Of a stretch of DNA of 50,202 nucleotides, positions 56-50,202 are shown in pieces. Made by a program: the position numbers and the translations under genes. Origin of the DNA: a virus; IMG/VR virus record IMGVR_UViG_3300045988_017301; one strand, given 5' to 3'. A model generated the notes under the pieces. It was not told where the DNA came from. It did no database searches and was given only the letters and a program-made list of their open reading frames with translations. Positions within the stretch are counted from its first letter, which is position 1. Every line of letters begins with the position of its first letter.

Positions 56-1155
56 CCGCCAGTGGATGTGCTTCCCTTGCACGGATGAACCGGAACTGCT
101 CCGAAGCCGGGAACGGTCTGGTACTTATGCGGATAGAAAATACCTGTTTTCTGTGTGCTTCCGTCATCGTTAAGCATCTTCGGAAGGCTGATGCCTGTAT
201 CCTGGTATTTTGCTCCGGTCGCATCGTAGGTGTAGTTCTTGCTGACCTTGTATCTGCCATTCACGAGCAATGTGTACGGGTCACGCATCCACTGCTGATA
301 TGTTCCAAGGACGATGGAGTGGAAGATCTTGTTGAGTGACTTCGCATCCTTTGTTCCGTAGAACTGTCCGCCACCTACGACTGCGTTCTGCTTCACTCCG
401 TTGGTCGGCGCAAGGCTCGCATCGTATCCGCTTGAATTTCCATAGCCGTATGCTTCCTGTGAGTTCGTGCTCTTTGCGAACATGATCAGAAGGTCAGTGA
501 TTGTCTGAACAATTCCGCCGCCGAGGAATGCTGCACGGCTTGAGAAGTTTGCGATTGCGGTATGCTCTTTGTCCGTGGTGTTATTGTAGCAAGGCTGCAA
601 TCCTGCTAGAGACACCATCTTTGGTGTGGAGGTATCTGCTCCGAGGATTGAACCGTAAAACATCGGAATCCATACACCCTCCAGTACATTGTTGCTCGGG
701 TCTTTAAATCCGACAGGCTCGAATCCGTCTCTTTCCCTCATGGAGAATTTAACGACACGGTCATTGCCGAGCATATACTCCTGCTTGTAAATCTTGGCAA
801 GCCACGAGAACGCTCCGCCGTTGTAGCTTGTGTTGGAAACGTCCGAAGCAGTGCCGTCCTCTTTCTTGGTGTAGTCGTTCTCATCCAGTCTGTAGTCCGG
901 TGTTCCGTCTGCCCTTACCATCCACGGCTTATTTGCCACGATGATCGGGAAGTCCGCCCAACTGTTGAGTGTCATTGTTCCGGTGTCCTTGTTGAGTGAA
1001 ATCGGAGTGAAGTCTTTGTTCTGTCCGATGTATTCGATTCGTGCTGTCGCACTTAAAACATCCATGTGCTCAATAAAGCCATAGATTCCGTCTGCGGATA
1101 AAATCGCATAGCACTTGTCGAGGGTTTCCTTGTCTGCGATGTACGTCTTTCCCAT
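1..1155 (-). CDS. DGR target protein, first 385 codons (distal tail-fibre / receptor-binding protein). The ORF runs off base 1 and continues at 50147 down to the stop at 50025, giving 425 aa on the closed circle.
   Basis: ATG at 1155 overlaps the upstream stop (TAATG). I checked codon by codon and found no stop in this frame down to base 1. It is absent from the ORF track because it has no in-window stop. It is the last gene of the fibre module. N-terminus MGKTYIADKETLDKCYAILSADGIYGF. Confidence 0.85.
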   Translation of the reverse strand, partial: MGKTYIADKETLDKCYAILSADGIYGFIEHMDVLSATARIEYIGQNKDFTPISLNKDTGTMTLNSWADFPIIVANKPWMVRADGTPDYRLDENDYTKKEDGTASDVSNTSYNGGAFSWLAKIYKQEYMLGNDRVVKFSMRERDGFEPVGFKDPSNNVLEGVWIPMFYGSILGADTSTPKMVSLAGLQPCYNNTTDKEHTAIANFSSRAAFLGGGIVQTITDLLIMFAKSTNSQEAYGYGNSSGYDASLAPTNGVKQNAVVGGGQFYGTKDAKSLNKIFHSIVLGTYQQWMRDPYTLLVNGRYKVSKNYTYDATGAKYQDTGISLPKMLNDDGSTQKTGIFYPHKYQTVPGFGAVPVHPCKGSTSTGGCDGLWQNVEIVAVALRFG

Positions 1156-1706
1156 TATTCCTCTACCTCCTCGTAGTATAAAAGTCCTTTATCCACACCA
1201 AGCACATACTTATCCCCAGTGGTCTGGTCGTAAAGGTACATACTGTTTGGTGTTACGATAGTTACATCTGTTGCGTTGGCGACCTCGGTTAAGAAGTCCA
1301 TGGTAATCGTGGACGGGAGGAGGTCGTTGTAAGCGGGCATATAATCCCACTGGTTTGCGACTCCGACTGCCAGTGCGTAGAGGATTTCCCCCTCGTCCGG
1401 GTCCTGTGCATAAATGCCGACCTCTTTCACGTAGTAGCCATTCTTAAGGTTTCCGGTGTCCTGCTTGTTTGTGATGATAAATTTCACATATACATTGGAC
1501 TGGTTCTGGGTCGTCACTGTAATCAGTGCGAACTCCTGCTTCTTGGATTTGAGAGCAGTTCTGTTTGTGAGTGCTTCGCCATCTGAATATGATCCGTCTC
1601 CGGTTGCGGCCTTGGTTAGTTTGATTGTGCATCTTCCTGCCTGTGCCTTGGCGAGCAGGGCGATTCCTTTGGCTGTCAGCACTGCTTCTTTGAATACTCC
1701 TGCCAT
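1155..1706 (-). CDS. Tail-fibre protein, baseplate-proximal module (P2 gpH N-terminus-like, tail-collar fibre type)
   Basis: N-terminus MAGVFKEAVLTAKGIALLAKAQAG..IKLTKAATGDG resembles the conserved phage fibre N-terminus. It follows the gpI-like gene. Confidence 0.7.
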   Translation of the reverse strand: MAGVFKEAVLTAKGIALLAKAQAGRCTIKLTKAATGDGSYSDGEALTNRTALKSKKQEFALITVTTQNQSNVYVKFIITNKQDTGNLKNGYYVKEVGIYAQDPDEGEILYALAVGVANQWDYMPAYNDLLPSTITMDFLTEVANATDVTIVTPNSMYLYDQTTGDKYVLGVDKGLLYYEEVEE

Positions 1707-2637: not shown

Positions 2638-3775
2638 CTCCGTATGTCACGGTCTGCGTTCCTATCCTTGCGACACTGGTATCCGGCACGGTTGTAAATA
2701 CCGGAGAGGTTATCTCCGCCCTCTTTGCTCCGGCTGCCACGATCCGTTTCATGAGTTCTGAAGGGTTGATATCTCTGCCGATGGTTCTGGTCTGCCATTC
2801 GATATAGTCAGCCACCGCCTGTGCCACCTCCGCCTGTATAGTTCCTGCCTTGGACTGGTCACTCAAATTTACATAGTATGTGAATGCAATGTTGAATTTG
2901 ACCGTCTCCGGTGCGAGCACGGTTACCTTGTCGGTAAGCGGGCGGATGTTTTCATCCTGCAGGTATGCTGCCACTCCGTCTATGACAGTCTTTGTCGGGA
3001 GTTCTCCGTCCGTCATAATGAAACGGATTTCTACCTCTACCGGGTTCGGACTGGTTACCTTTACATCTCCGATGGTCTGGCTGTAGGTCTTTGTCCAGTA
3101 TTTGTATGCATCGTCCGGTCCTGCGACACTGTATCCGCTTGGTGCGAGGAATATCCTCTCTGCAAGGCTCTCGTCTGATTCGAGGTCTGCTCCACCGCTT
3201 GTCTTGGTCGTGTTGCTTACGCTCTCCACATACGGTATCAAATCAACCAGTACATTGACCTGCCCCGGCAGCAGTTCGTTTCCGTCCACTCCGTTCTCGG
3301 TGCAGAGTGCCCTCACATCTACATAGGTTTCCCCTGCGGGGATTTCCTCGTATCCTACTGTGGCGAAGTAGTTGAGGTTGCCGTCCGTGACCTTTGTTCC
3401 TTCCGGTATGCCTACGGCTGCAGGCCGCTTCTCTGAAAGAGTGAACCTCAGTGTTGTTTCCGCAGGGGACGGCTGCTTTCTGGTTACTCCCCTGCCTGCT
3501 CCGAGGTTGTCGAGGAATTCGCCGTAGGAGTATTTGATTAAGTCCTGCTTTCCGGCTCTGTCTATGTACTGTTCGTCCTGGTATAATTCCAGTGCGATGG
3601 CATATAGCATGATGCGGTTCGGATCTGAAGGAGAGAGCGTTATCTCCTGTCCTGTGATGCGCTTCCATTCGCTCTCAAAGTTTGCCACCATTCTTGTTTT
3701 CATTGCTTCCAGTGTGTCATTGTCAATGAACGACACCTCTGGGAGGTCTTTTACGCTTTGGATTGTGTCAGACAT
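2621..3775 (-). CDS. Baseplate J-like protein
   Basis: 384 aa, lying between the gpW-like and gpI-like genes. Size and order match P2 J / PBSX XkdT. Confidence 0.8.
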   Translation of the reverse strand: MSDTIQSVKDLPEVSFIDNDTLEAMKTRMVANFESEWKRITGQEITLSPSDPNRIMLYAIALELYQDEQYIDRAGKQDLIKYSYGEFLDNLGAGRGVTRKQPSPAETTLRFTLSEKRPAAVGIPEGTKVTDGNLNYFATVGYEEIPAGETYVDVRALCTENGVDGNELLPGQVNVLVDLIPYVESVSNTTKTSGGADLESDESLAERIFLAPSGYSVAGPDDAYKYWTKTYSQTIGDVKVTSPNPVEVEIRFIMTDGELPTKTVIDGVAAYLQDENIRPLTDKVTVLAPETVKFNIAFTYYVNLSDQSKAGTIQAEVAQAVADYIEWQTRTIGRDINPSELMKRIVAAGAKRAEITSPVFTTVPDTSVARIGTQTVTYGGVEND

Positions 3776-40665: not shown

Positions 40666-41397
40666 TTACTCTTCCGTGTAGAATGTGTGGTTACCGTGTG
40701 TGAATAATTTTTTCAGTGTGGTGTTGTGCCATGTGGTTTCATCCGTGGTTCTCTCGAAGTATGTCGCTCCTCGGCTCTCATCCCAGTGCTCTACCTGCAC
40801 CATTTCCAGTGCCCGGTAGCAGTCTGCGTCCGGTTCTACCCTGTCGTATCTTCCATTTTCGTATGCTGCGAACTGGGTATCCTCTGTGATCACTCCCTCG
40901 ATGGTATCTGGGAAGTCATCGCTCCATACTCGGTTCAGCACTACCAGTATGACCAGTGCCTTGCCCTCGGTGTCCTCGCCCTCTGCTTCTGCCATGGCGA
41001 TTTTCGCTAATCTGTAGGAGTCATCTGCATCCCAGTCCAGACTGCCGATTGCTGCGGTCGTTGTCGGTACTGGTGTCTCAGTGCTCTGGAGGATTGCGTT
41101 GTAGTAGGATTGTTCCTCTGCCTGCTCTGCTGCCTTGTATGCGTCACGCTCTTTGCACATCTGTTCATATTCTTCCTGCGTAAGCCATGTGTCCGAGCCT
41201 TCCACCTGCACCATGCCTATGTGGTTTTCCTCTATGTACTCGCTCCAGTCCGGCATCGGTTCGTTTGCCCATGCGATAAATAATCCGACAAACATTCCCG
41301 CTCCCACTATTACCGCTACTGCATCCCCTGCTATGCGCTTCAGCTTTCTTTTCAGAATTCGCTTCTGTCTCCTACTGAGTTTCAAATCGTCATGCAC
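40666..41397 (-). CDS. Membrane-anchored cell-wall hydrolase, SleB/CwlJ (Hydrolase_2)-like
   Basis: N-terminal TM AVAVIVGAGMFVGLFIAW. C-terminal ..LAKIAMAEAEGEDTEGKALVILVVLNRV..FPDTIEGVI..QFAAY..GATYF. Confidence 0.7.
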   Translation of the reverse strand: MHDDLKLSRRQKRILKRKLKRIAGDAVAVIVGAGMFVGLFIAWANEPMPDWSEYIEENHIGMVQVEGSDTWLTQEEYEQMCKERDAYKAAEQAEEQSYYNAILQSTETPVPTTTAAIGSLDWDADDSYRLAKIAMAEAEGEDTEGKALVILVVLNRVWSDDFPDTIEGVITEDTQFAAYENGRYDRVEPDADCYRALEMVQVEHWDESRGATYFERTTDETTWHNTTLKKLFTHGNHTFYTEE

Positions 41398-42418: not shown

Positions 42419-42619
42419 TTAGATGGAATGCTGTGCGACCTCTGCCTTGTACGGTTCTCCGCCTCTGGCGAGTTCACGGTACATGGTAGCCGAGTGGACA
42501 CCGATTGCCATCGCCATCTCATCTACTGTTTTGCCCTGTGCGTTCAGTGCTTCGATTTTCTTTCTGTCCTCGAATCCGATGCGCTTGTACGCTTTTCTCG
42601 GTCGCTTATTGGTTGCCAT
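42419..42619 (-). CDS. Stand-alone HTH protein, paralog of the IS30-transposase N-terminal DNA-binding domain (HTH_38-type)
   Basis: KRIGFEDRKKIEALNAQGKTVDEMAMAIGVHSATMYRELARG versus transposase KQLSRADRLKIEALLKAGHGKQEIADQIGVHVSTIYRELQRG: 22/42 identical by my alignment. Confidence 0.7.
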   Translation of the reverse strand: MATNKRPRKAYKRIGFEDRKKIEALNAQGKTVDEMAMAIGVHSATMYRELARGGEPYKAEVAQHSI

Positions 42620-42839: not shown

Positions 42840-44042
42840 GTTTTGTTGGTAAATTTGCACAGACTACCCCTCTTTTCGTTTTGCTCTCTGCTTATTCTAC
42901 TCTATTTATGCCAGTCTTGCCAGTTCTTCCTGGAACAATTCGCCGGAGGTTTTCCATCCGAACATCTCCCTTGGGTAGTCGTTGATCCAGTCCTCTACCC
43001 TCTGGATATCGTCCTCTGTCCGGTCATCGAAGTTCTCTCCCTTTGGTATCTTCCTGCGCACCAGTCGGTTCTGGTTTTCGTTGCTGCCACGCTCAAAGGA
43101 GCAGTATGGGTGGCAGTAGAACACGGTCACTCTCTTTTCGGACTCATCTGCTGCCGACTGCTGCATTCCCTCCCAGTCAGCGAACTCCGAGCCATTGTCC
43201 ACGGTTATGGTCTTGAACACCTGCCCGAATCGCTCTCCCCATTCCGCTTCTAACTGATCCAGTCGCTTGCAGACCTGCTCAGTCGTGTGCTCATATAAAA
43301 GGTATATGAGTTCGTTCCTGGTCTTTCTCTCTGTCAGTACCAGAAGGCTGTGTTTGCTTTCCCCTCTTTTACCTACCACTGTGTCCATCTCCCAGTGTCC
43401 GAATTCCTCTCTGGTGTCGATGTCCTCTGGCCGCTTCTCTATGCTTGTGCCTGCGTTGGCTCTCGCCTGCCTGCGTACTTTCTTATTCTTCTTTTTCCGT
43501 CTGCCTTTTACTGGGAGTTCCTTATTTGTGATTGTGAGGAATATTCCCTTGTCGATGTAACTGTAAAGGGTCGGCTTGCTGATCTCTGTTTCAAACTCTA
43601 ACCCTTTGGCTTTAATCTCTCCGAGGACTGCTCCGGGCGAGTATCCGTCCTCTGCTATCTTTGTTTCTATGTACTCTGCCAGTCTGTGGTCTTTGCCTAT
43701 CTTAAGGTCTGGACCCTTGTCTCGCAGGTTCTGTTGGTACTTATCCTCTGCGATGTCTGGGGAGTATCGATCTTCTATCGTTAAGTCTGAATTTGTGTGT
43801 GGGTATCTGCCCCGCTGCAATTCACGGTATATGGTGCTGACATGGACTCCTATCTGATCCGCTATCTCCTGCTTGCCATGTCCTGCTTTCAGCAGTGCTT
43901 CTATTTTTAATCTATCGGCTCTGGATAATTGCTTAAATCTACGCATGGTAACCACCTCCCTGTCTCTTTCTACTATTATCGGTGTTAAAGTTATAAATTT
44001 CAATAACAAAACACTTATAAATAAGGATAAGATACCAACAAA
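42840..44042 (-). mobile_element. Possible IS30-like element boundaries (weakly supported)
   Basis: The only short inverted matches flanking the gene are TTTGTTGGTA (42843-52) / TACCAACAAA (44033-42) and GTTTTGTT..AAATTT (42840-56) / AAATTT..AACAAAAC (43995-44012). I found no target-site duplication. Confidence 0.25.
42906..43946 (-). CDS. IS30-family DDE transposase/integrase
   Basis: N-terminal HTH, then ..GHWEMDTV.., ..ITVDNGSEF.., ..FYCHPYCSFERGSNENQNRLVRRKIPKG.. (the IS30 signature). ATG 43946 has GGGAGGTGG upstream. Confidence 0.9.
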   Translation of the reverse strand: MRRFKQLSRADRLKIEALLKAGHGKQEIADQIGVHVSTIYRELQRGRYPHTNSDLTIEDRYSPDIAEDKYQQNLRDKGPDLKIGKDHRLAEYIETKIAEDGYSPGAVLGEIKAKGLEFETEISKPTLYSYIDKGIFLTITNKELPVKGRRKKKNKKVRRQARANAGTSIEKRPEDIDTREEFGHWEMDTVVGKRGESKHSLLVLTERKTRNELIYLLYEHTTEQVCKRLDQLEAEWGERFGQVFKTITVDNGSEFADWEGMQQSAADESEKRVTVFYCHPYCSFERGSNENQNRLVRRKIPKGENFDDRTEDDIQRVEDWINDYPREMFGWKTSGELFQEELARLA

Positions 44043-44095
44043 GAAGTGGTGCTTTTAGGGTTATATTTTTGTTGAATTTATGGGTTATAAAAGAC

Positions 44096-44124
44096 TTGAA
44101 TACCTCCGCAACCCAAGGTAATAT
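44096..44124 (+). promoter_or_regulatory. Sigma-70-like promoter P1, TTGAAT-17-TAATAT
   Basis: ttgaat acctccgcaacccaagg taatat, about 45 nt upstream of ATG 44169. Confidence 0.6.
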
Positions 44125-44168
44125 ACAGACACTTAAAGGATAGCAAATAAAAAACGGAGGTGCTTTTT

Positions 44169-44345
44169 ATGAAGCAGATGAGAAATATTATTGATACATG
44201 GAATATGATTGAAAAGTATAACTTGCAGGGATGGGTAGAGAAAGATAGCACCGTGATTCTTCTTCCGGACAGCGAATACGAGAGACTTCTTGCCAGTGTT
44301 AAAAATCAGAAATATATTCGCAACTTGGTTCATTGTCAGCGATAG
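44169..44345 (+). CDS. Small protein (58 aa)
   Basis: GGAGG RBS. MKQMRNIIDTWNM..STVILLPDSEYERLLASV.. is faintly Phd/YefM-like. Confidence 0.55.
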   Translation: MKQMRNIIDTWNMIEKYNLQGWVEKDSTVILLPDSEYERLLASVKNQKYIRNLVHCQR

Positions 44346-44357
44346 GAGGGATTGGTT

Positions 44358-44597
44358 ATGACGCTCACATTAAAATTAAAACGCTACAAACTTATGGAGG
44401 AACACCGTTCCTGCGTCAGATCTGGTAAGCTGCAGGAGGCTCGCAAAATCCTTCGCTTTCTTTCCAGAGGTTATGTTCGGCTTGGTTTCGATGATGTTAG
44501 CTGGGCGGTCGAGCAGATTCTGGAATCATGCGGCTTCCATATCAGTATTAATTCACGAACCGGAATGGCTTCCTGTTCCGTTAACTGGGAGTTATGA
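44358..44597 (+). CDS. Small protein (79 aa), unknown function
   Basis: GGAGGG lies 7 nt upstream of ATG 44358. Confidence 0.55.
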   Translation: MTLTLKLKRYKLMEEHRSCVRSGKLQEARKILRFLSRGYVRLGFDDVSWAVEQILESCGFHISINSRTGMASCSVNWEL

Positions 44598-44672
44598 AAA
44601 GCCTTAAAATACCAACAAAAAGTGAGCCTTAGACGGCTCGGAAGTTTGTGCAGATTATGTGTTATAAATAAC

Positions 44673-44701
44673 TTGAATTTACCTCTTTTCCAAGGTAATA
44701 T
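44673..44701 (+). promoter_or_regulatory. Sigma-70-like promoter P2, TTGAAT-17-TAATAT (a duplicate of P1)
   Basis: ttgaat ttacctcttttccaagg taatat. Part of an approximately 130-bp diverged direct repeat of 44031-44165. Confidence 0.6.
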
Positions 44702-44733
44702 ACACACAACCTAAAGGAAAGGAGGTGCATCCG

Positions 44734-44853
44734 ATGAATTTGGATGATTTGGTTTCTAAAATAAATAAGCTGAGTAAAGTTGTTCGAGCCCTTACTCAGC
44801 TTGCATTGGAAATCGGAACGCTCGTAGCGGTTATCCGATTCATCATCTTATGA
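44734..44853 (+). CDS. 39-aa peptide with a hydrophobic C-terminus (MNLDDLVSKINKLSKVVRALTQLALEIGTLVAVIRFIIL)
   Basis: AGGAGG RBS 8 nt upstream. A 10-bp-stem hairpin follows at 44863-44886. Not in the ORF track. Confidence 0.5.
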   Translation: MNLDDLVSKINKLSKVVRALTQLALEIGTLVAVIRFIIL

Positions 44854-44926
44854 TGATGGCTTGGGGGAGGGGTTCACCTCTCTCCCTTGCTTCTCAAAAT
44901 ATACCACACGATTGGAGGTCTTGTCA

Positions 44927-45025
44927 ATGAAACGGTTATGTGTTTCAGTTTCGGTTCTGGCTTTTCGGATAGCGGAGTTGCTTATCGTGGTTTCTGGTCT
45001 GCTTCTCCTGCTTTCCAGAATGTAG
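44927..45025 (+). CDS. 32-aa hydrophobic peptide (MKRLCVSVSVLAFRIAELLIVVSGLLLLLSRM)
   Basis: TGGAGG lies 8 nt upstream of the ATG. A single predicted TM helix. Not in the ORF track. Confidence 0.45.
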   Translation: MKRLCVSVSVLAFRIAELLIVVSGLLLLLSRM

Positions 45026-45371
45026 CCGGTCCGTCCGGGGCAGTGCATCTGCTCCGGCTCTAACCCACCGATGTCTGGTCCCAAGTCCAGAAGGCGGAAG
45101 CGTGAGGGGAGCAAAGGACAATGCCATGTCTGAGTGATGTCTGACAAGTTTGCCTGGTTTTTAATGTGAAAGCCTTAAAGGTAGGAGGAGTTATTGGTTT
45201 TTACCGATTGCCTATCGCAACTCGTTGATTTTGTTTCCTGCGTTGCAGAGAAAGGGTTAGGTGATGTGTAGCCGAGCACGAGGTCTTATCTGGTGTACCG
45301 TAACACTGGACGCTCTCTCCAGTCGGGCGAGACCGATGGGCGACATGGCTTATTGTTCCTTTTTGAAAAAC

Positions 45372-45409
45372 GGCGATAAATTTCCGGCGGTAAAACTCCG
45401 GCGATAAAA
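45372..45409 (+). repeat. Three tandem (C)CGGCG(A/G)TAAA repeats with a period of about 13-14 bp
   Basis: cggcgataaa (45372), ccggcggtaaa (45386), ccggcgataaa (45399), 20 nt upstream of ATG 45429. Confidence 0.6.
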
Positions 45410-45428
45410 TCTGAAAGGATCTGATAAA

Positions 45429-45659
45429 ATGATTTATATTGATAAGTGCCGCACCGACCTCGGTGTTACCGTGGACGAGTGGGCGGTTGATGATAGATGT
45501 CGGTTCTCTGATTCCGGCAAGGTCGGCATAGGGACTGGTGTTCGTGTGCTCGATATTACTGACAAGTTTGGCGATGTTCTGGTTCGCCTTGTGATTTCGG
45601 ATTCCTGCTCTGACAATGTCAGCAGGTTCTCCTGCAGGGAGGTGTTGTCTCATGAATAA
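45429..45659 (+). CDS. Hypothetical 76-aa protein, translationally coupled to the HTH gene
   Basis: AAAGGA RBS. The stop overlaps the next start (CATGAATAA). Confidence 0.45.
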   Translation: MIYIDKCRTDLGVTVDEWAVDDRCRFSDSGKVGIGTGVRVLDITDKFGDVLVRLVISDSCSDNVSRFSCREVLSHE

Positions 45660-45861
45660 AGAACTGCTTGAGCCGATCATGCGTGCTCACGGAGATAAAA
45701 ACAAGGACTTGGCTGCGGCCATTGGTATGTCCGTTCCGAACTTCTCCACCATCTGGAATGGTCGTGGCGAGTTTGCTCTGAAGTATATCCGTCTCATTGC
45801 CCGGAGATATTCTCTTACCCCGGAGCAGGTCTATAAAATCTTTATCTTTCCGCAGGGGTAA
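45652..45861 (+). CDS. Small XRE/Cro-type HTH regulator (69 aa)
   Basis: GGGAGG RBS. ..KDLAAAIGMSVPNFSTIWNGRGE.. is an HTH. Confidence 0.7.
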   Translation: MNKELLEPIMRAHGDKNKDLAAAIGMSVPNFSTIWNGRGEFALKYIRLIARRYSLTPEQVYKIFIFPQG

Positions 45862-45919
45862 TCATTGCCCCTGCTTTTTCTTTGGCTTTCAAATCTGCCC
45901 CATTTAGGCAATAAAAAAG

Positions 45920-45946
45920 ACCCAGTGGGTGTTTGTTCCACTGGGT
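45920..45946. terminator. Bidirectional intrinsic terminator between the convergent HTH gene (+) and endolysin (-)
   Basis: ACCCAGTGG gtgtttgtt CCACTGGGT (9-bp stem), flanked by an A-run upstream and TGCTTTTCG downstream. Confidence 0.7.
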
Positions 45947-46108
45947 TGCTTTTCGTCTTATTCTGGCTGTCACGGTGCGCCACGCTCTGGGTTCTGCGTT
46001 GCGGTGTTCCCGACATTTATGTCGGTCACATCGTCCGGGTGCTTACCCCCTTTAGAACCCCCTCTGCGGCACATCATACCTCCACTCTTTTTATAAGTCA
46101 ATCGCCAA

Positions 46109-48087: not shown

Positions 48088-48178
48088 TAGTTCCCTTCTC
48101 CACTCTGACCGCGATCTGTTCCTTTGTCAGCCTGCCTGCGGCATAAAGTCTTTTCAGACTGTCGATTAATACTCTCAT
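48023..48178 (-). CDS. XkdX-family small protein (51 aa)
   Basis: MRVLIDSLKRLYAAGRLTKEQIAVRVEKGTIDEAEYEEITGE.. matches the XkdX pattern. TAATG overlap with the upstream stop. Not in the ORF track. Confidence 0.7.
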   Translation of the reverse strand: MRVLIDSLKRLYAAGRLTKEQIAVRVEKGTIDEAEYEEITGEKYKAETKAK

Positions 48179-48441
48179 TATAACAATCCCTCCTCGATAA
48201 GCTGTGCGGTGTAATCATCAATCGCCTTGTCGGTATTGATCTGCTTAATGGATTCCAACATCTGGTATTCCGATACAGTGATTTCCCTGCTATCGCACTC
48301 CCAGTCGGTGTAGGCTTCCATGCCCTCGGTTGCTTCGTGCTGCACTTTCTTGATGTTCTTTCTCTGGATGTAGATGCCGTCAGCCACAAGCTGCAGCTCC
48401 TGCGGCTCCTCGGAGCATCTTTCCTTGGTCCATTCCTTCAT
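48178..48441 (-). CDS. XkdW-position small acidic protein
   Basis: AAAGGAGG lies 7 nt upstream of ATG 48441. 87 aa. It precedes the XkdX-like gene. Confidence 0.6.
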   Translation of the reverse strand: MKEWTKERCSEEPQELQLVADGIYIQRKNIKKVQHEATEGMEAYTDWECDSREITVSEYQMLESIKQINTDKAIDDYTAQLIEEGLL

Positions 48442-49603
48442 GGTTCTGCCTCCTTTTGATTTTTGATATTATTTTCTTAAGCCGGCCCACATGGATATAA
48501 GGTTTTATCCTGCTCTGGTAACAGTCATATGTGTCCGTGCAGGTAAACCATCCCATGTACGACAGCATGGCTTCGATGTGTCTGTGAAAGTATCCACGGT
48601 TCGCTTCCTTTGACCTCTCCATCTTCTTTGCCAACCGTGTTGCGGATAGCATGATGTTCTTTCTGATCAGCGTCTTGGTTCTGTAAAATATAAAACCCAT
48701 GAAATCCAGTGCCCTACCTATCTTCCGCTTGCCCTTCTCGTAGTAGAATTTGCATACCTGGTAGTTGTGCTTCAGCTTTAATCTGAAACGCTGACCGAGC
48801 ATCTTCCTTATCTCCACGATGGCTCTCTGGAGGACTTTCTTGCTGCTTGCGAATATGACGATATCGTCCATGTACCTTTGCAGCTTTGGCAGACCGAGCA
48901 CCTCTGTGATCAGTCGGTCGAGTGGTTCTAAGAGGTAATTTGCCAACCACTGGCTGATGTAAAATCCGAGAGGGATTCCTTTATTAAATCCCTGTAGGCA
49001 TAATCCGATGATGTATAAAAACCAGTCATCCTTGATTCGGATTGCCAGTTCCTTCATCAGAATTTTCAGCCGGATACTATCATAAAAGTGCCGGATATCC
49101 ATCTTTGCGAAGCACCGTGTTCCCTTCGGGTCATGCAAAAGCCACCGCTCTATCTGTCTCTTTCCGTAGTGTGCTCCACGCTTTGGGAACGAACCGCAGG
49201 AGTATGGATAGGCTGTGGCTGTGATGATTGGCTCTAATACCAGAACGATGATGTGGTGCAGCCATTGTTCATGAATTTCCGGCATATAAATTTTTCGTCT
49301 TTTCCCATGTTCGAAGATGATCTTCGGGGTTCTTTTCTTTGGCTTGTATGCCAGTTCCGGGTGTGGGACGTCCACTCCCTCCGGCTTTGTGTTTAGGATC
49401 ATGTCGTACATTTTCTGCACCTCATTATCGAGGTGTGCGTCTATGTACTGGATCTCTTTTCTCTTGGTTTTTCCTTTGCGTAATTTCTTATATGCTTTCC
49501 GAATGACATCATCCTTCAGCATTTGTTGATACAGATATTTGTACTCTTTGTGACCGTGTTTCGGTTCATTACGCAGATGGATTTCTGTGTGTGTTTTTCG
49601 CAT
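48380..49603 (-). CDS. DGR reverse transcriptase
   Basis: ..SCGSFPKRGAHYG.., ..KMDIRHFYDSI.., ..GIPLGFYISQWLANYLL.. (the DGR-type [LIV]GxxxSQ motif), ..RYMDDIVIF.., ..LDFMGFIFY... Adjacent to the TR. Confidence 0.9.
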   Translation of the reverse strand: MRKTHTEIHLRNEPKHGHKEYKYLYQQMLKDDVIRKAYKKLRKGKTKRKEIQYIDAHLDNEVQKMYDMILNTKPEGVDVPHPELAYKPKKRTPKIIFEHGKRRKIYMPEIHEQWLHHIIVLVLEPIITATAYPYSCGSFPKRGAHYGKRQIERWLLHDPKGTRCFAKMDIRHFYDSIRLKILMKELAIRIKDDWFLYIIGLCLQGFNKGIPLGFYISQWLANYLLEPLDRLITEVLGLPKLQRYMDDIVIFASSKKVLQRAIVEIRKMLGQRFRLKLKHNYQVCKFYYEKGKRKIGRALDFMGFIFYRTKTLIRKNIMLSATRLAKKMERSKEANRGYFHRHIEAMLSYMGWFTCTDTYDCYQSRIKPYIHVGRLKKIISKIKRRQNHEGMDQGKMLRGAAGAAACG

Positions 49604-49797
49604 TCTGCTGAGTACTCCTATAAGATATTTTTTCTTCTATCTCCTACGCACGGCAGGTGCGACCGCTTTACCGTGCGTCCTGTGTCGGACTCATTTCCAC
49701 TCATCTTCCCAGTAATGGTGAGTAAACCTTGTTTCAAAGGTCAGCGGTGTAGGAAGCAGGACTGCTTTGGGTTGTTATTCCGTTTAAGATAGAATAA

Positions 49798-49906
49798 GGC
49801 GGCCCCGATGTTCCAGTTGGCATTCCCGGCAGTGTTGTTCACATTCAAGTAGCGCAAACCATCATTCGTACCGTTGTTGCAATTACCGAACCGAAGGGCG
49901 ACCGCC
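49798..49906 (-). repeat. DGR template repeat (TR), 109 bp
   Basis: Matches 50061..50169 at 94 of 109 positions. In the target frame it reads ..FGNCNNGTNDGLRYLNVNNTAGNANWNIGAA (AAY-rich). Confidence 0.9.
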
Positions 49907-49973
49907 CGAGGTGACGCAGTCCTGCGCCCCTGTTATTCTTCCTTACGCTATTAAAATCCGATTTTGTTCCACT

Positions 49974-50000
49974 GGGGGAATTCTGCTAACGCAGACCCCC
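49974..50000 (-). promoter_or_regulatory. GC-rich hairpin downstream of VR and the stop codon. Candidate DGR target-recognition hairpin.
   Basis: Minus strand GGGGG TCTGC gtta GCAGA att CCCCC. An AGACCCCC tandem lies beside it. Confidence 0.5.
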
Positions 50001-50024
50001 AGACCCCCTATCACGGTGTCTTGC

Positions 50025-50202
50025 TTACGCTGCGACCCCGACAGGTGGTAAAAGAAGGACGGCGGCCCCGATGCTCCAGGCGGCAGCCCCGGCAGCGTTG
50101 TGCACAGGCAAGGCGCGCAAACCAGCAGCCGTACCGTTGTTGCAAGTACCGAACCGAAGGGCGACCGCCACAATCTCGACATTCTGCCATAATCCGTCAC
50201 AG
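50025..50202 (-). CDS. DGR target protein, C-terminal part containing VR (the continuation of 1..1155 across the circle junction; 50148-50202 duplicates 1-55)
   Basis: The frame continuing from base 1 reads ..VEIVAVALRFGTCNNGTAAGLRALPVHNAAGAAAWSIGAAVLLLPPVGVAA*, with TAA at 50025-50027. Confidence 0.85.
   Translation of the reverse strand, partial: CDGLWQNVEIVAVALRFGTCNNGTAAGLRALPVHNAAGAAAWSIGAAVLLLPPVGVAA
50061..50169 (-). repeat. DGR variable repeat (VR), 109 bp
   Basis: It differs from the TR at 15 positions, 14 of them TR adenines on the coding strand. Confidence 0.9.
50148..50202. repeat. Second copy of the 55-bp terminal overlap
   Basis: Identical to 1..55. Confidence 0.95.

Follow-up and report, generated by a model that had tools for sequence, protein, structure and literature searches.

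Tens of thousands of diversity-generating retroelements (DGRs) are catalogued, and the commonest kind is carried by gut phages and targets tail fibers. The DGRs of phage clades in gut Firmicutes mostly target tail proteins (Roux et al. 2021, PMC8144416). Faecalibacterium phage FP_Epona (Eponavirus epona, NC_047910) was reported to carry a DGR without an Avd homolog, with a target called FGE/Mtd-like (Cornuault et al. 2018, PMC5883640). Avd-less DGRs make up 26% of the 372 surveyed by Wu et al. (2018), Lineage 3 is without avd altogether, and no distant avd was seen in the genomes of Avd-less DGRs (PMC5758913). In the DGR of Bordetella phage BPP-1, cryo-electron microscopy (cryo-EM) revealed the “cPRT Stop” avd:Sp duplex, which is about 13 bp long on average and is predicted for Avd-containing DGRs (bioRxiv 10.1101/2023.10.23.563531). 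This report presents an analysis of a DGR in the virus record IMGVR_UViG_3300045988_017301 from IMG/VR, a stretch of 50,202 nucleotides referred to here as the window. The element is very probably an active, Avd-less DGR that hypermutates 15 codons at the C-type-lectin-like C-terminal tip of a distal tail protein.

The two ends of the window are identical over 55 bp (positions 1-55 match 50148-50202), and the true genome is therefore a closed circle of 50147 bp. On the minus strand of this circle, the cassette consists of a 425-amino-acid tail protein that contains the variable repeat (VR), the template repeat (TR), a structured RNA, and a 407-amino-acid reverse transcriptase (RT), in that order. 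The VR is 109 bp long, straddles the assembly overlap (50061-50169; on the circle, 50061-50147 plus 1-22), and covers codons 378-414 of the 425 codons of the target. The TR, also 109 bp long, is non-coding and intergenic (49798-49906, minus strand). It begins 154 bp after the VR and 118 bp after the target stop codon, and the start of the RT lies a further 194 bp downstream. This anatomy, in which a coding target carries the VR at its 3' end and a non-coding TR lies beside an RT, is typical of DGRs. The target open reading frame (ORF), the repeat coordinates, and the three spacings had all been given by the initial annotation, and each is exact. The genome contains neither a second VR nor another partner for the TR.

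The TR and VR differ at 15 positions, 14 of which are adenines in the TR and one of which is a T-to-G change. With 25 adenines among 109 bases, the binomial probability that at least 14 of 15 mismatches fall on adenine is 1.3e-8. In the frame of the target, 13 of the TR adenines occupy codon position 1, 12 occupy position 2, and none occupies position 3. The first reading of the DNA had described the TR as rich in AAY codons (where Y is a pyrimidine); it has ten of them, and in the target frame it reads ...FGNCNNGTNDGLRYLNVNNTAGNANWNIGAA. None of its codons is able to mutate to a stop, and 15 codons are diversifiable. With the TR adenines confined to codon positions 1 and 2, up to ~6e14 stop-free peptide variants are reachable. 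The T-to-G change (VR 50114 versus TR 49851) converts TAC to GCC and lies beside an adenine. The same change accounts for 26 of the 43 non-adenine changes in 118 TR/VR pairs collected from related loci (L001-L160), which suggests either recurrent second-order misincorporation or selection.

The RT (48380-49603, minus strand) matches Pfam RVT_1 (3e-17) and phrog_1423 (8e-93). The two motifs originally reported for this enzyme, IPLGFYISQ and YMDD, are both present in the ORF. The former aligns to IPIGSLTSQ of the BPP-1 enzyme bRT, R103 aligns to bRT R74, and the best match in the PDB is bRT itself (8ub7, 6e-16). An origin of the RT in a group II intron, a retron, or a defense system, with the repeat pair present by coincidence, would be in keeping with the second PDB match (GsI-IIC RT, 9e-14) and with a sub-threshold score against the NCBIfam group II intron model. 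This score is 100.6 bits against a cutoff of 300 bits, however, and the RT also falls below the NCBIfam cutoffs for retron and defense (Drt) RT models. Motif 4 is of the IGxxxSQ type rather than the QGxxxSP type of group II enzymes, and Rfam finds no intron RNA domains. Whether the RT would group with group II or retron enzymes had been set beforehand as a test of the DGR assignment; bRT is its best match, and the group II and retron scores are far below their cutoffs. The repeats add weight, with an adenine bias of P = 1.3e-8 in the window and a TR/VR pair that is kept in 130 loci, and a non-DGR origin is so improbable as to be almost negligible. By its motifs and matches, the RT is assigned to the DGR class.

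These 130 loci come from RT homologs down to 25% identity, each with an adenine-mismatched repeat pair just upstream of the RT, and they yield the 118 distinct pairs. Of 2923 adenine sites, 1545 are substituted, against less than 1% of other bases, where the scan admits at most one non-adenine mismatch by design and the non-adenine rates are lower bounds.

The DGR is active in nature. Close relatives were taken to be IMG/VR contigs whose RTs are 96-100% identical to that of the window. Ten distinct VR alleles occur in 11 near-identical genomes, in which all 25 adenine-templated positions vary, versus only 4 non-adenine positions. Most close relatives that reach the repeats have no mismatch in the TR; the exceptions are L073, with one substitution, and L007 (IMGVR_UViG_3300029452_000027, 1575-1700), in which the TR has an in-frame 6-nt deletion (GTAATT) and the VR is full length. 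Pairwise nucleotide diversity amounts to 0.145 in the VR, compared with 0.00-0.065 in flanking bins of 109 bp, and it is 0.000 in the TR of the window and six full-length relatives. The VR heterogeneity that had been proposed at adenine-templated sites is thus seen across samples, and because the TR is invariant while the VR is variable, information moves from TR to VR.

The same pattern is found in proteins and in a cultured host. All 16 sampled members of the 90% identity cluster of the target differ in their VR peptides: the 15 adenine-templated codons reach as many as 10 alleles, and no other site has more than 3. The phage is also carried as a prophage by the cultured isolate Clostridium sp. 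OF03-18AA, in which the TR is identical to that of the window and the VR is different again. Six contigs end or lose homology within the VR, as assemblers cause contigs to do at multi-allelic sites. In contig L072 (IMGVR_UViG_3300045988_095184, 3380-3560), homology to the window stops mid-VR and the upstream DNA encodes the N-terminus of a Baseplate_J protein; either some 3.9 kb between baseplate J and the VR have been deleted, or the contig was assembled chimerically at the hypervariable site. Cluster sizes were also tried as a gauge of hypervariation (20016 distinct sequences in the 90% cluster of the target versus about 6200 for the RT). The difference lies in the expected direction and was set aside as too crude to count as evidence.

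Such data bear on the idea that the cassette is a decayed relic in which old VR differences have been kept by ordinary mutation, recombination, and selection. Nothing specific supports decay. The RT ORF has no disruption and keeps every catalytic motif, genomes that are 1-2% apart elsewhere carry unrelated VRs over an unchanged TR (in the window and the six full-length relatives), no two of the 16 sampled proteins share a VR, and substitutions are confined to adenine-templated sites. A relic is very unlikely.

The target ORF was rebuilt on the circle, where its 425 codons run on the minus strand from 1155 to 1 and then, across the circle junction, from 50147 to 50025. The 5' part (1-1155) encodes codons 1-385 and matches phrog_5302, “tail protein,” at 5e-92 (profile positions 128-546 of 548). 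The 3' part (50025-50147) encodes the variable region and an invariant tail, ...AAVLLLPPVGVAA, and ends with the stop codon TAA (50025-50027). Directly upstream lies a 183-amino-acid N-terminal tail-fiber ORF (1155-1706, minus strand; Pfam Phage_tail_fib, 5e-10; phrog_5302 positions 2-135), the stop codon of which overlaps the start of the target in the sequence TAATG (1153-1157). The phrog_5302 profile spans both ORFs as one fused protein. In other phages the two parts are indeed one protein (phrog_5302 and many database homologs of 500-1270 amino acids), and the fiber is split here.

Neither Pfam nor NCBIfam has a match to the target, and no Pfam domain covers the target region in 61 diverse homologs. 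The target module nevertheless comprises 1557 clusters at 50% identity, always as the C-terminal ~400 residues of proteins of 390-1271 amino acids. A module of about 400 residues with more than 1500 such clusters is very widespread, yet it is without a Pfam model. The family alignment has a fixed scaffold, RFGxCxxGTxxGLRxLxVxxTAxxAxWxxGAA-LLLPPVGVAA, around the variable residues.

A C-type lectin (CLec) fold had been suggested for this protein, and modeling points the same way. The AlphaFold2 model has a mean predicted local distance difference test score (pLDDT) of 65.6, a predicted template modeling score (pTM) of 0.75, and a pLDDT below 50 over the VR. Foldseek finds a single significant PDB neighbor, TaqVP (E 4.9e-4, probability 0.99, template modeling (TM) score 0.34-0.42). 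TaqVP is also the only PDB match of a sequence profile built from diverse homologs (E 0.0026), and that match is aligned over the VR. The diverse profile was needed to reach TaqVP; a profile of close homologs returned only noise from the PDB. Mtd is not matched by the target in PDB sequence, profile, or Foldseek searches. Structural neighbors in BFVD are tail-collar fiber proteins of gut phages, including crAss-like phages. Taken as predictions, these matches support a distal tail protein with a TaqVP-like, C-type-lectin-like tip. The initial annotation had called this tip receptor-binding and hypermutated; the VR does vary at adenine-templated codons across genomes, and receptor binding itself is predicted.

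The diversified protein might instead bind mucus or other gut glycans, or serve a superinfection-related role, rather than bind host receptors. Among the DGR targets of related gut phages are Hoc-like decoration proteins with a suggested affinity for mucus (PMC5883640), and elsewhere the target module is joined to very different N-terminal parts (collagen, leucine-rich repeats, and carbohydrate-binding modules). In the window, by contrast, the target directly follows genes for Baseplate_J, Tail_P2_I, and the 183-amino-acid Phage_tail_fib protein (identified by Pfam and PHROG). It is translationally coupled to the tail-fiber ORF, the two are covered by one PHROG profile as a fused tail protein, and the BFVD neighbors are annotated as tail-collar fibers. 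A role other than receptor binding is improbable.

The spacer that separates the TR from the RT contains the only Rfam match in the window, RF03025 or “RT-4 RNA” (49635-49751, minus strand; 127.8 bits versus a gathering threshold of 73.5, E 4e-25). The match is full length (model positions 1-118 of 118), and RT-4 occupies this position in FP_Epona, too, and in 12 of the 17 relatives examined. Weinberg et al. (2017) placed a different motif, RT-10, at the TR-RT spacer of BPP-1 and speculated that DGRs make use of further RT motifs (PMC5737381). In the literature searched, RT-4 had no assigned function or link to DGRs (Weinberg et al. 2017, PMC5737381). A distant relative, a Melainabacteria metagenome-assembled genome whose RT is 36% identical (L120, 3932-4008), has no RT-4 beside its RT; the Rfam motif RT-18 takes that place, directly upstream. 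This raises the possibility that several of the orphan “RT-n” motifs serve as DGR spacer RNAs, each in its own lineage.

A second RNA element is a predicted long-range helix of 14 bp that encloses the TR. The 5' arm, GGGCGCAGGACUGC, lies at 49916-49929 and the 3' arm, GCAGUCCUGCUUCCU, at 49751-49765, where it abuts the RT-4 motif (both on the minus strand). RNAalifold predicted this helix unprompted from an alignment of 27 loci. In the alignment 91.7% of cells are paired and compensatory changes occur in 12 of the 14 pairs; none of 500 shuffles reaches the observed values, and slid controls are 35-52% paired. Single-sequence folding of the TR-to-RT region is no better than that of shuffled sequences (z = -0.14) and misses the long-range helix. 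By analogy, the helix is the putative counterpart of the BPP-1 “cPRT Stop” duplex. A further candidate, the pairing of a conserved UUCUAUC after the TR with an invariant GAUAGAA at the 3' end of RT-4, was rejected, as its one-sided changes are uncompensated.

DNA elements around the VR partly resemble those of described DGRs. The 3' end of the VR, CATCGGGGCCGCC (50061-50073, minus strand; read from the sequence), is G+C-rich, adenine-poor, and identical in the TR. Past this end, the likeness of the two repeats continues as an imperfect pyrimidine-rich stretch, TCCTTCTTTT versus TTATTCTATC. By analogy with the initiation of mutagenic homing (IMH) site of BPP-1 (PMC3240598), we infer an IMH role for the G+C-rich end. 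An inverted repeat that could form a hairpin or cruciform lies 58 bp downstream of the VR (49972-50002, minus strand; DNA fold). Its 7-bp G+C stem (CTGGGGG/CCCCCAG) encloses, in the window, an inner hairpin (TCTGC-GTTA-GCAGA). The G5/C5 core never varies among 27 related loci, and the two outer pairs covary: pair 6 is kept in all 27 (TA in 23 and CG in 4) and pair 7 in 24 (CG, GC, TA, or GT). The loop is 4 nt (YYTT) in 11 of the 27, and the others, including the window, carry an inserted inner hairpin. Published DGR target hairpins have a G+C stem of 7-10 bp and a 4-nt GRNA loop, and they lie 4-34 bp from the VR (PMC3240598). A scan of the minus strand for promoters and terminators yielded nothing useful; that a -10-like TATAAC just before a conserved AGGGG is a promoter element is speculation.

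The cassette had been described at the outset as a complete DGR, and this is so for the RT, TR, VR, and target and not for Avd. No Avd or four-helix-bundle family was found in Pfam and NCBIfam scans of plausible ORFs, which covered all but the tape-measure ORF and a few ORFs of less than 90 amino acids. The 154-bp gap between VR and TR leaves no room for avd, and no ORF lies between the two repeats in any related locus. It is an evenly balanced question whether the element is a natural two-component DGR of one RT and one RNA, in which RT-4 and the TR-enclosing helix would scaffold, prime, and terminate synthesis in place of Avd and its spacer RNA.

A protein cofactor might be needed instead, either a host-encoded Avd analog or the product of an 87-amino-acid acidic ORF (48178-48441, minus strand) that matches phrog_20201 (function not known) and has no Pfam match. 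This ORF starts inside the RT gene, and the two share 62 nt at the RT 3' end (48380-48441). The RT, the 87-amino-acid ORF, and XkdX are adjacent in almost all loci with an RT identity of at least 47% and in a few at 35-40%. Homologs of the ORF in 50,697 phage records are all beside an RT or in a record without annotation. Cornuault et al. also proposed that another small protein may stand in for Avd (PMC5883640). Against a cofactor, the ORF is acidic, whereas Avd is basic; it always travels with XkdX, as in tail modules of the PBSX type, and may be a plain tail gene; and, as noted above, Wu et al. saw no distant avd in Avd-less DGR genomes (PMC5758913). The requirement for a cofactor is thus rather unlikely, and the ORF itself is either a tail gene at the XkdW position or a DGR accessory protein. 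The neighbors had been described as XkdW/XkdX-like. The XkdX assignment stands (Pfam, 4.7e-12), whereas no XkdW match was found, the 87-amino-acid ORF matching only phrog_20201.

The proposed mechanism for the Avd-less DGR has four steps. First, an RNA would run from the 5' helix arm through the TR and the 3' helix arm to RT-4, and would probably continue into the RT mRNA; the elements are present in the DNA, and the transcript is deduced from their arrangement. Second, by analogy with the “cPRT Stop” avd:Sp duplex of BPP-1, the 14-bp helix and the RT-4 fold may form a scaffold that binds the RT and positions a spacer adenosine to cis-prime complementary DNA (cDNA) close to the TR's G+C-rich 3' end, and synthesis would halt at the helix. 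Third, the RT would make an accurate copy of the TR apart from sites opposite adenine, at which it may insert any base; the outcome is seen in the related repeat pairs, in which about half of the adenines are changed to any base and other bases at less than 1% (as a lower bound). Fourth, the cDNA would replace the VR in one direction, as the invariant TR indicates, probably guided by the IMH-like end and the hairpin. The resulting VR variants most likely alter the ligand-binding face of the tail-fiber tip, which would allow the phage to follow changing host surface receptors.

Several observations weigh against this account. One mismatch in the window, the T-to-G change, falls off adenine. The AlphaFold2 model is modest overall (mean pLDDT 65.6) and poor over the VR, and its TM-scores to TaqVP are only 0.34-0.42. 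The hairpin is 58 bp from the VR, versus 4-34 bp in published DGRs, and has a loop other than GRNA. Receptor binding and tropism switching are predictions only, and the evidence for diversification is between samples rather than within one population or infection cycle. Finally, to our knowledge Avd is essential in the only DGR that has been studied biochemically, and no Avd was found here; for this reason, the RNA-only scaffold is something that we infer. An active, Avd-less DGR acting on the tail-fiber tip remains very probable.

Elsewhere the genome has genes for a lambda-type portal, a GpA terminase, an FII tail tube, GpU, and related products, and downstream of the RT the 87-amino-acid ORF and XkdX are followed by a holin and a GH25+CW_7 endolysin (Pfam and PHROG). 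This portal, terminase, and tail gene set indicates a phage with a contractile tail and a Gram-positive host, here one that is temperate and infects gut Clostridia. The genome was found to contain neither a tyrosine nor a serine integrase. A 367-amino-acid IS30-like transposase (HTH_38 and rve domains) is encoded at 42906-44009 (minus strand) and is adjoined by a truncated second copy of its HTH region (42449-42595, minus strand; 47% identity over residues 23-71). An “IScream” class of Clostridia gut phages that integrate via IS30 transposases was recently proposed (PMC12247996), and an IS30-like transposase without an integrase fits this class. The ~2 kb between the transposase and the endolysin (44000-46100) has no convincing ORF and no Pfam, tRNA, or Rfam match. 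A 243-amino-acid protein (40666-41397, minus strand) has a C-terminal Hydrolase_2 domain (cell-wall hydrolase, SleB-type) and is encoded far from the lysis cassette and near the transposase.

The BPP-1 DGR (mtd-avd-TR-brt) is the model to which the cassette was initially matched, and the match is partial. The two share adenine-specific transfer from TR to VR into what is here a predicted CLec-type tip at the C-terminus of a tail fiber, an RT with the IGxxxSQ motif and a counterpart of R74, a structured RNA in the TR-RT spacer, an apparent duplex of sequences upstream and downstream of the TR, and a G+C-rich VR 3' end followed by a hairpin. In contrast to BPP-1, the cassette has no avd, so that the upstream arm of the helix lies in intergenic DNA and not within avd. 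The spacer RNA is RT-4 rather than RT-10, the RT has 407 rather than 328 amino acids, and the target has no detectable sequence similarity to Mtd. The hairpin is further from the VR and has no GRNA loop, the host is Gram-positive, and the tail is contractile.

TaqVP, from a DGR in a Thermus aquaticus prophage (PDB 5VF4, PMC6328139), is similar to the target in length (381 versus 425 amino acids) and in where the VR lies, namely C-terminally in a CLec fold. The two are only ~14% identical, the TM-scores of 0.34-0.42 come from a model of medium quality, and organism and genomic context differ. The Avd-less DGRs of Wu et al. (2018), notably Lineage 3, share the absence of avd, with Lineage 3A reported from Bacteroides (PMC5758913).

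The closest described system is FP_Epona (Cornuault et al. 2018, PMC5883640). Its gene order is the same from baseplate J to the lysis genes: baseplate J, a P2 I-like protein, a 183-amino-acid tail-collar fiber, a target of ~415 amino acids, VR, TR, RT-4, RT, the 87-amino-acid ORF, XkdX, and lysis genes. Identity to the proteins of the window is 70% for the RT and 64% for the target, the 107-bp TR/VR pair has 13 adenine mismatches, and RT-4 scores 124 bits. FP_Epona differs in its host (F. prausnitzii, versus a Clostridium sp./Lachnospiraceae prophage here), in having a large serine recombinase where the window has an IS30-like transposase, and in its lysis genes. A megablast search of the cassette against the 50,697 phage records found no match, and FP_Epona was reached only by a protein search with the 87-amino-acid ORF. 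The Gram-positive, PBSX-like tail context and the target family, which had been put forward as possible novelties, are not new, as the FP_Epona DGR was published in 2018.

As an instance of a DGR, the cassette therefore adds little to what was described in phage Epona. It does provide a clean example of natural activity, with a closed circle, a cultured lysogenic host, and thousands of public VR alleles. In the literature searched, two points possibly have not been stated before: that RT-4 is the spacer RNA of this Avd-less lineage, and that the TR-enclosing duplex is kept in it. The tie between the uncharacterized RT-4 and DGR function offers a handle on Avd-independent mutagenic retrohoming. 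Were the two-component reading true, RT-4 would gain a function, the “cPRT Stop” architecture would predate or be independent of Avd, and a minimal hypermutation module would be available from a Gram-positive phage with a cultured host, Clostridium sp. OF03-18AA. An Avd-less lineage appears to retain the TR-enclosing duplex that is seen in the cryo-EM structure of BPP-1.

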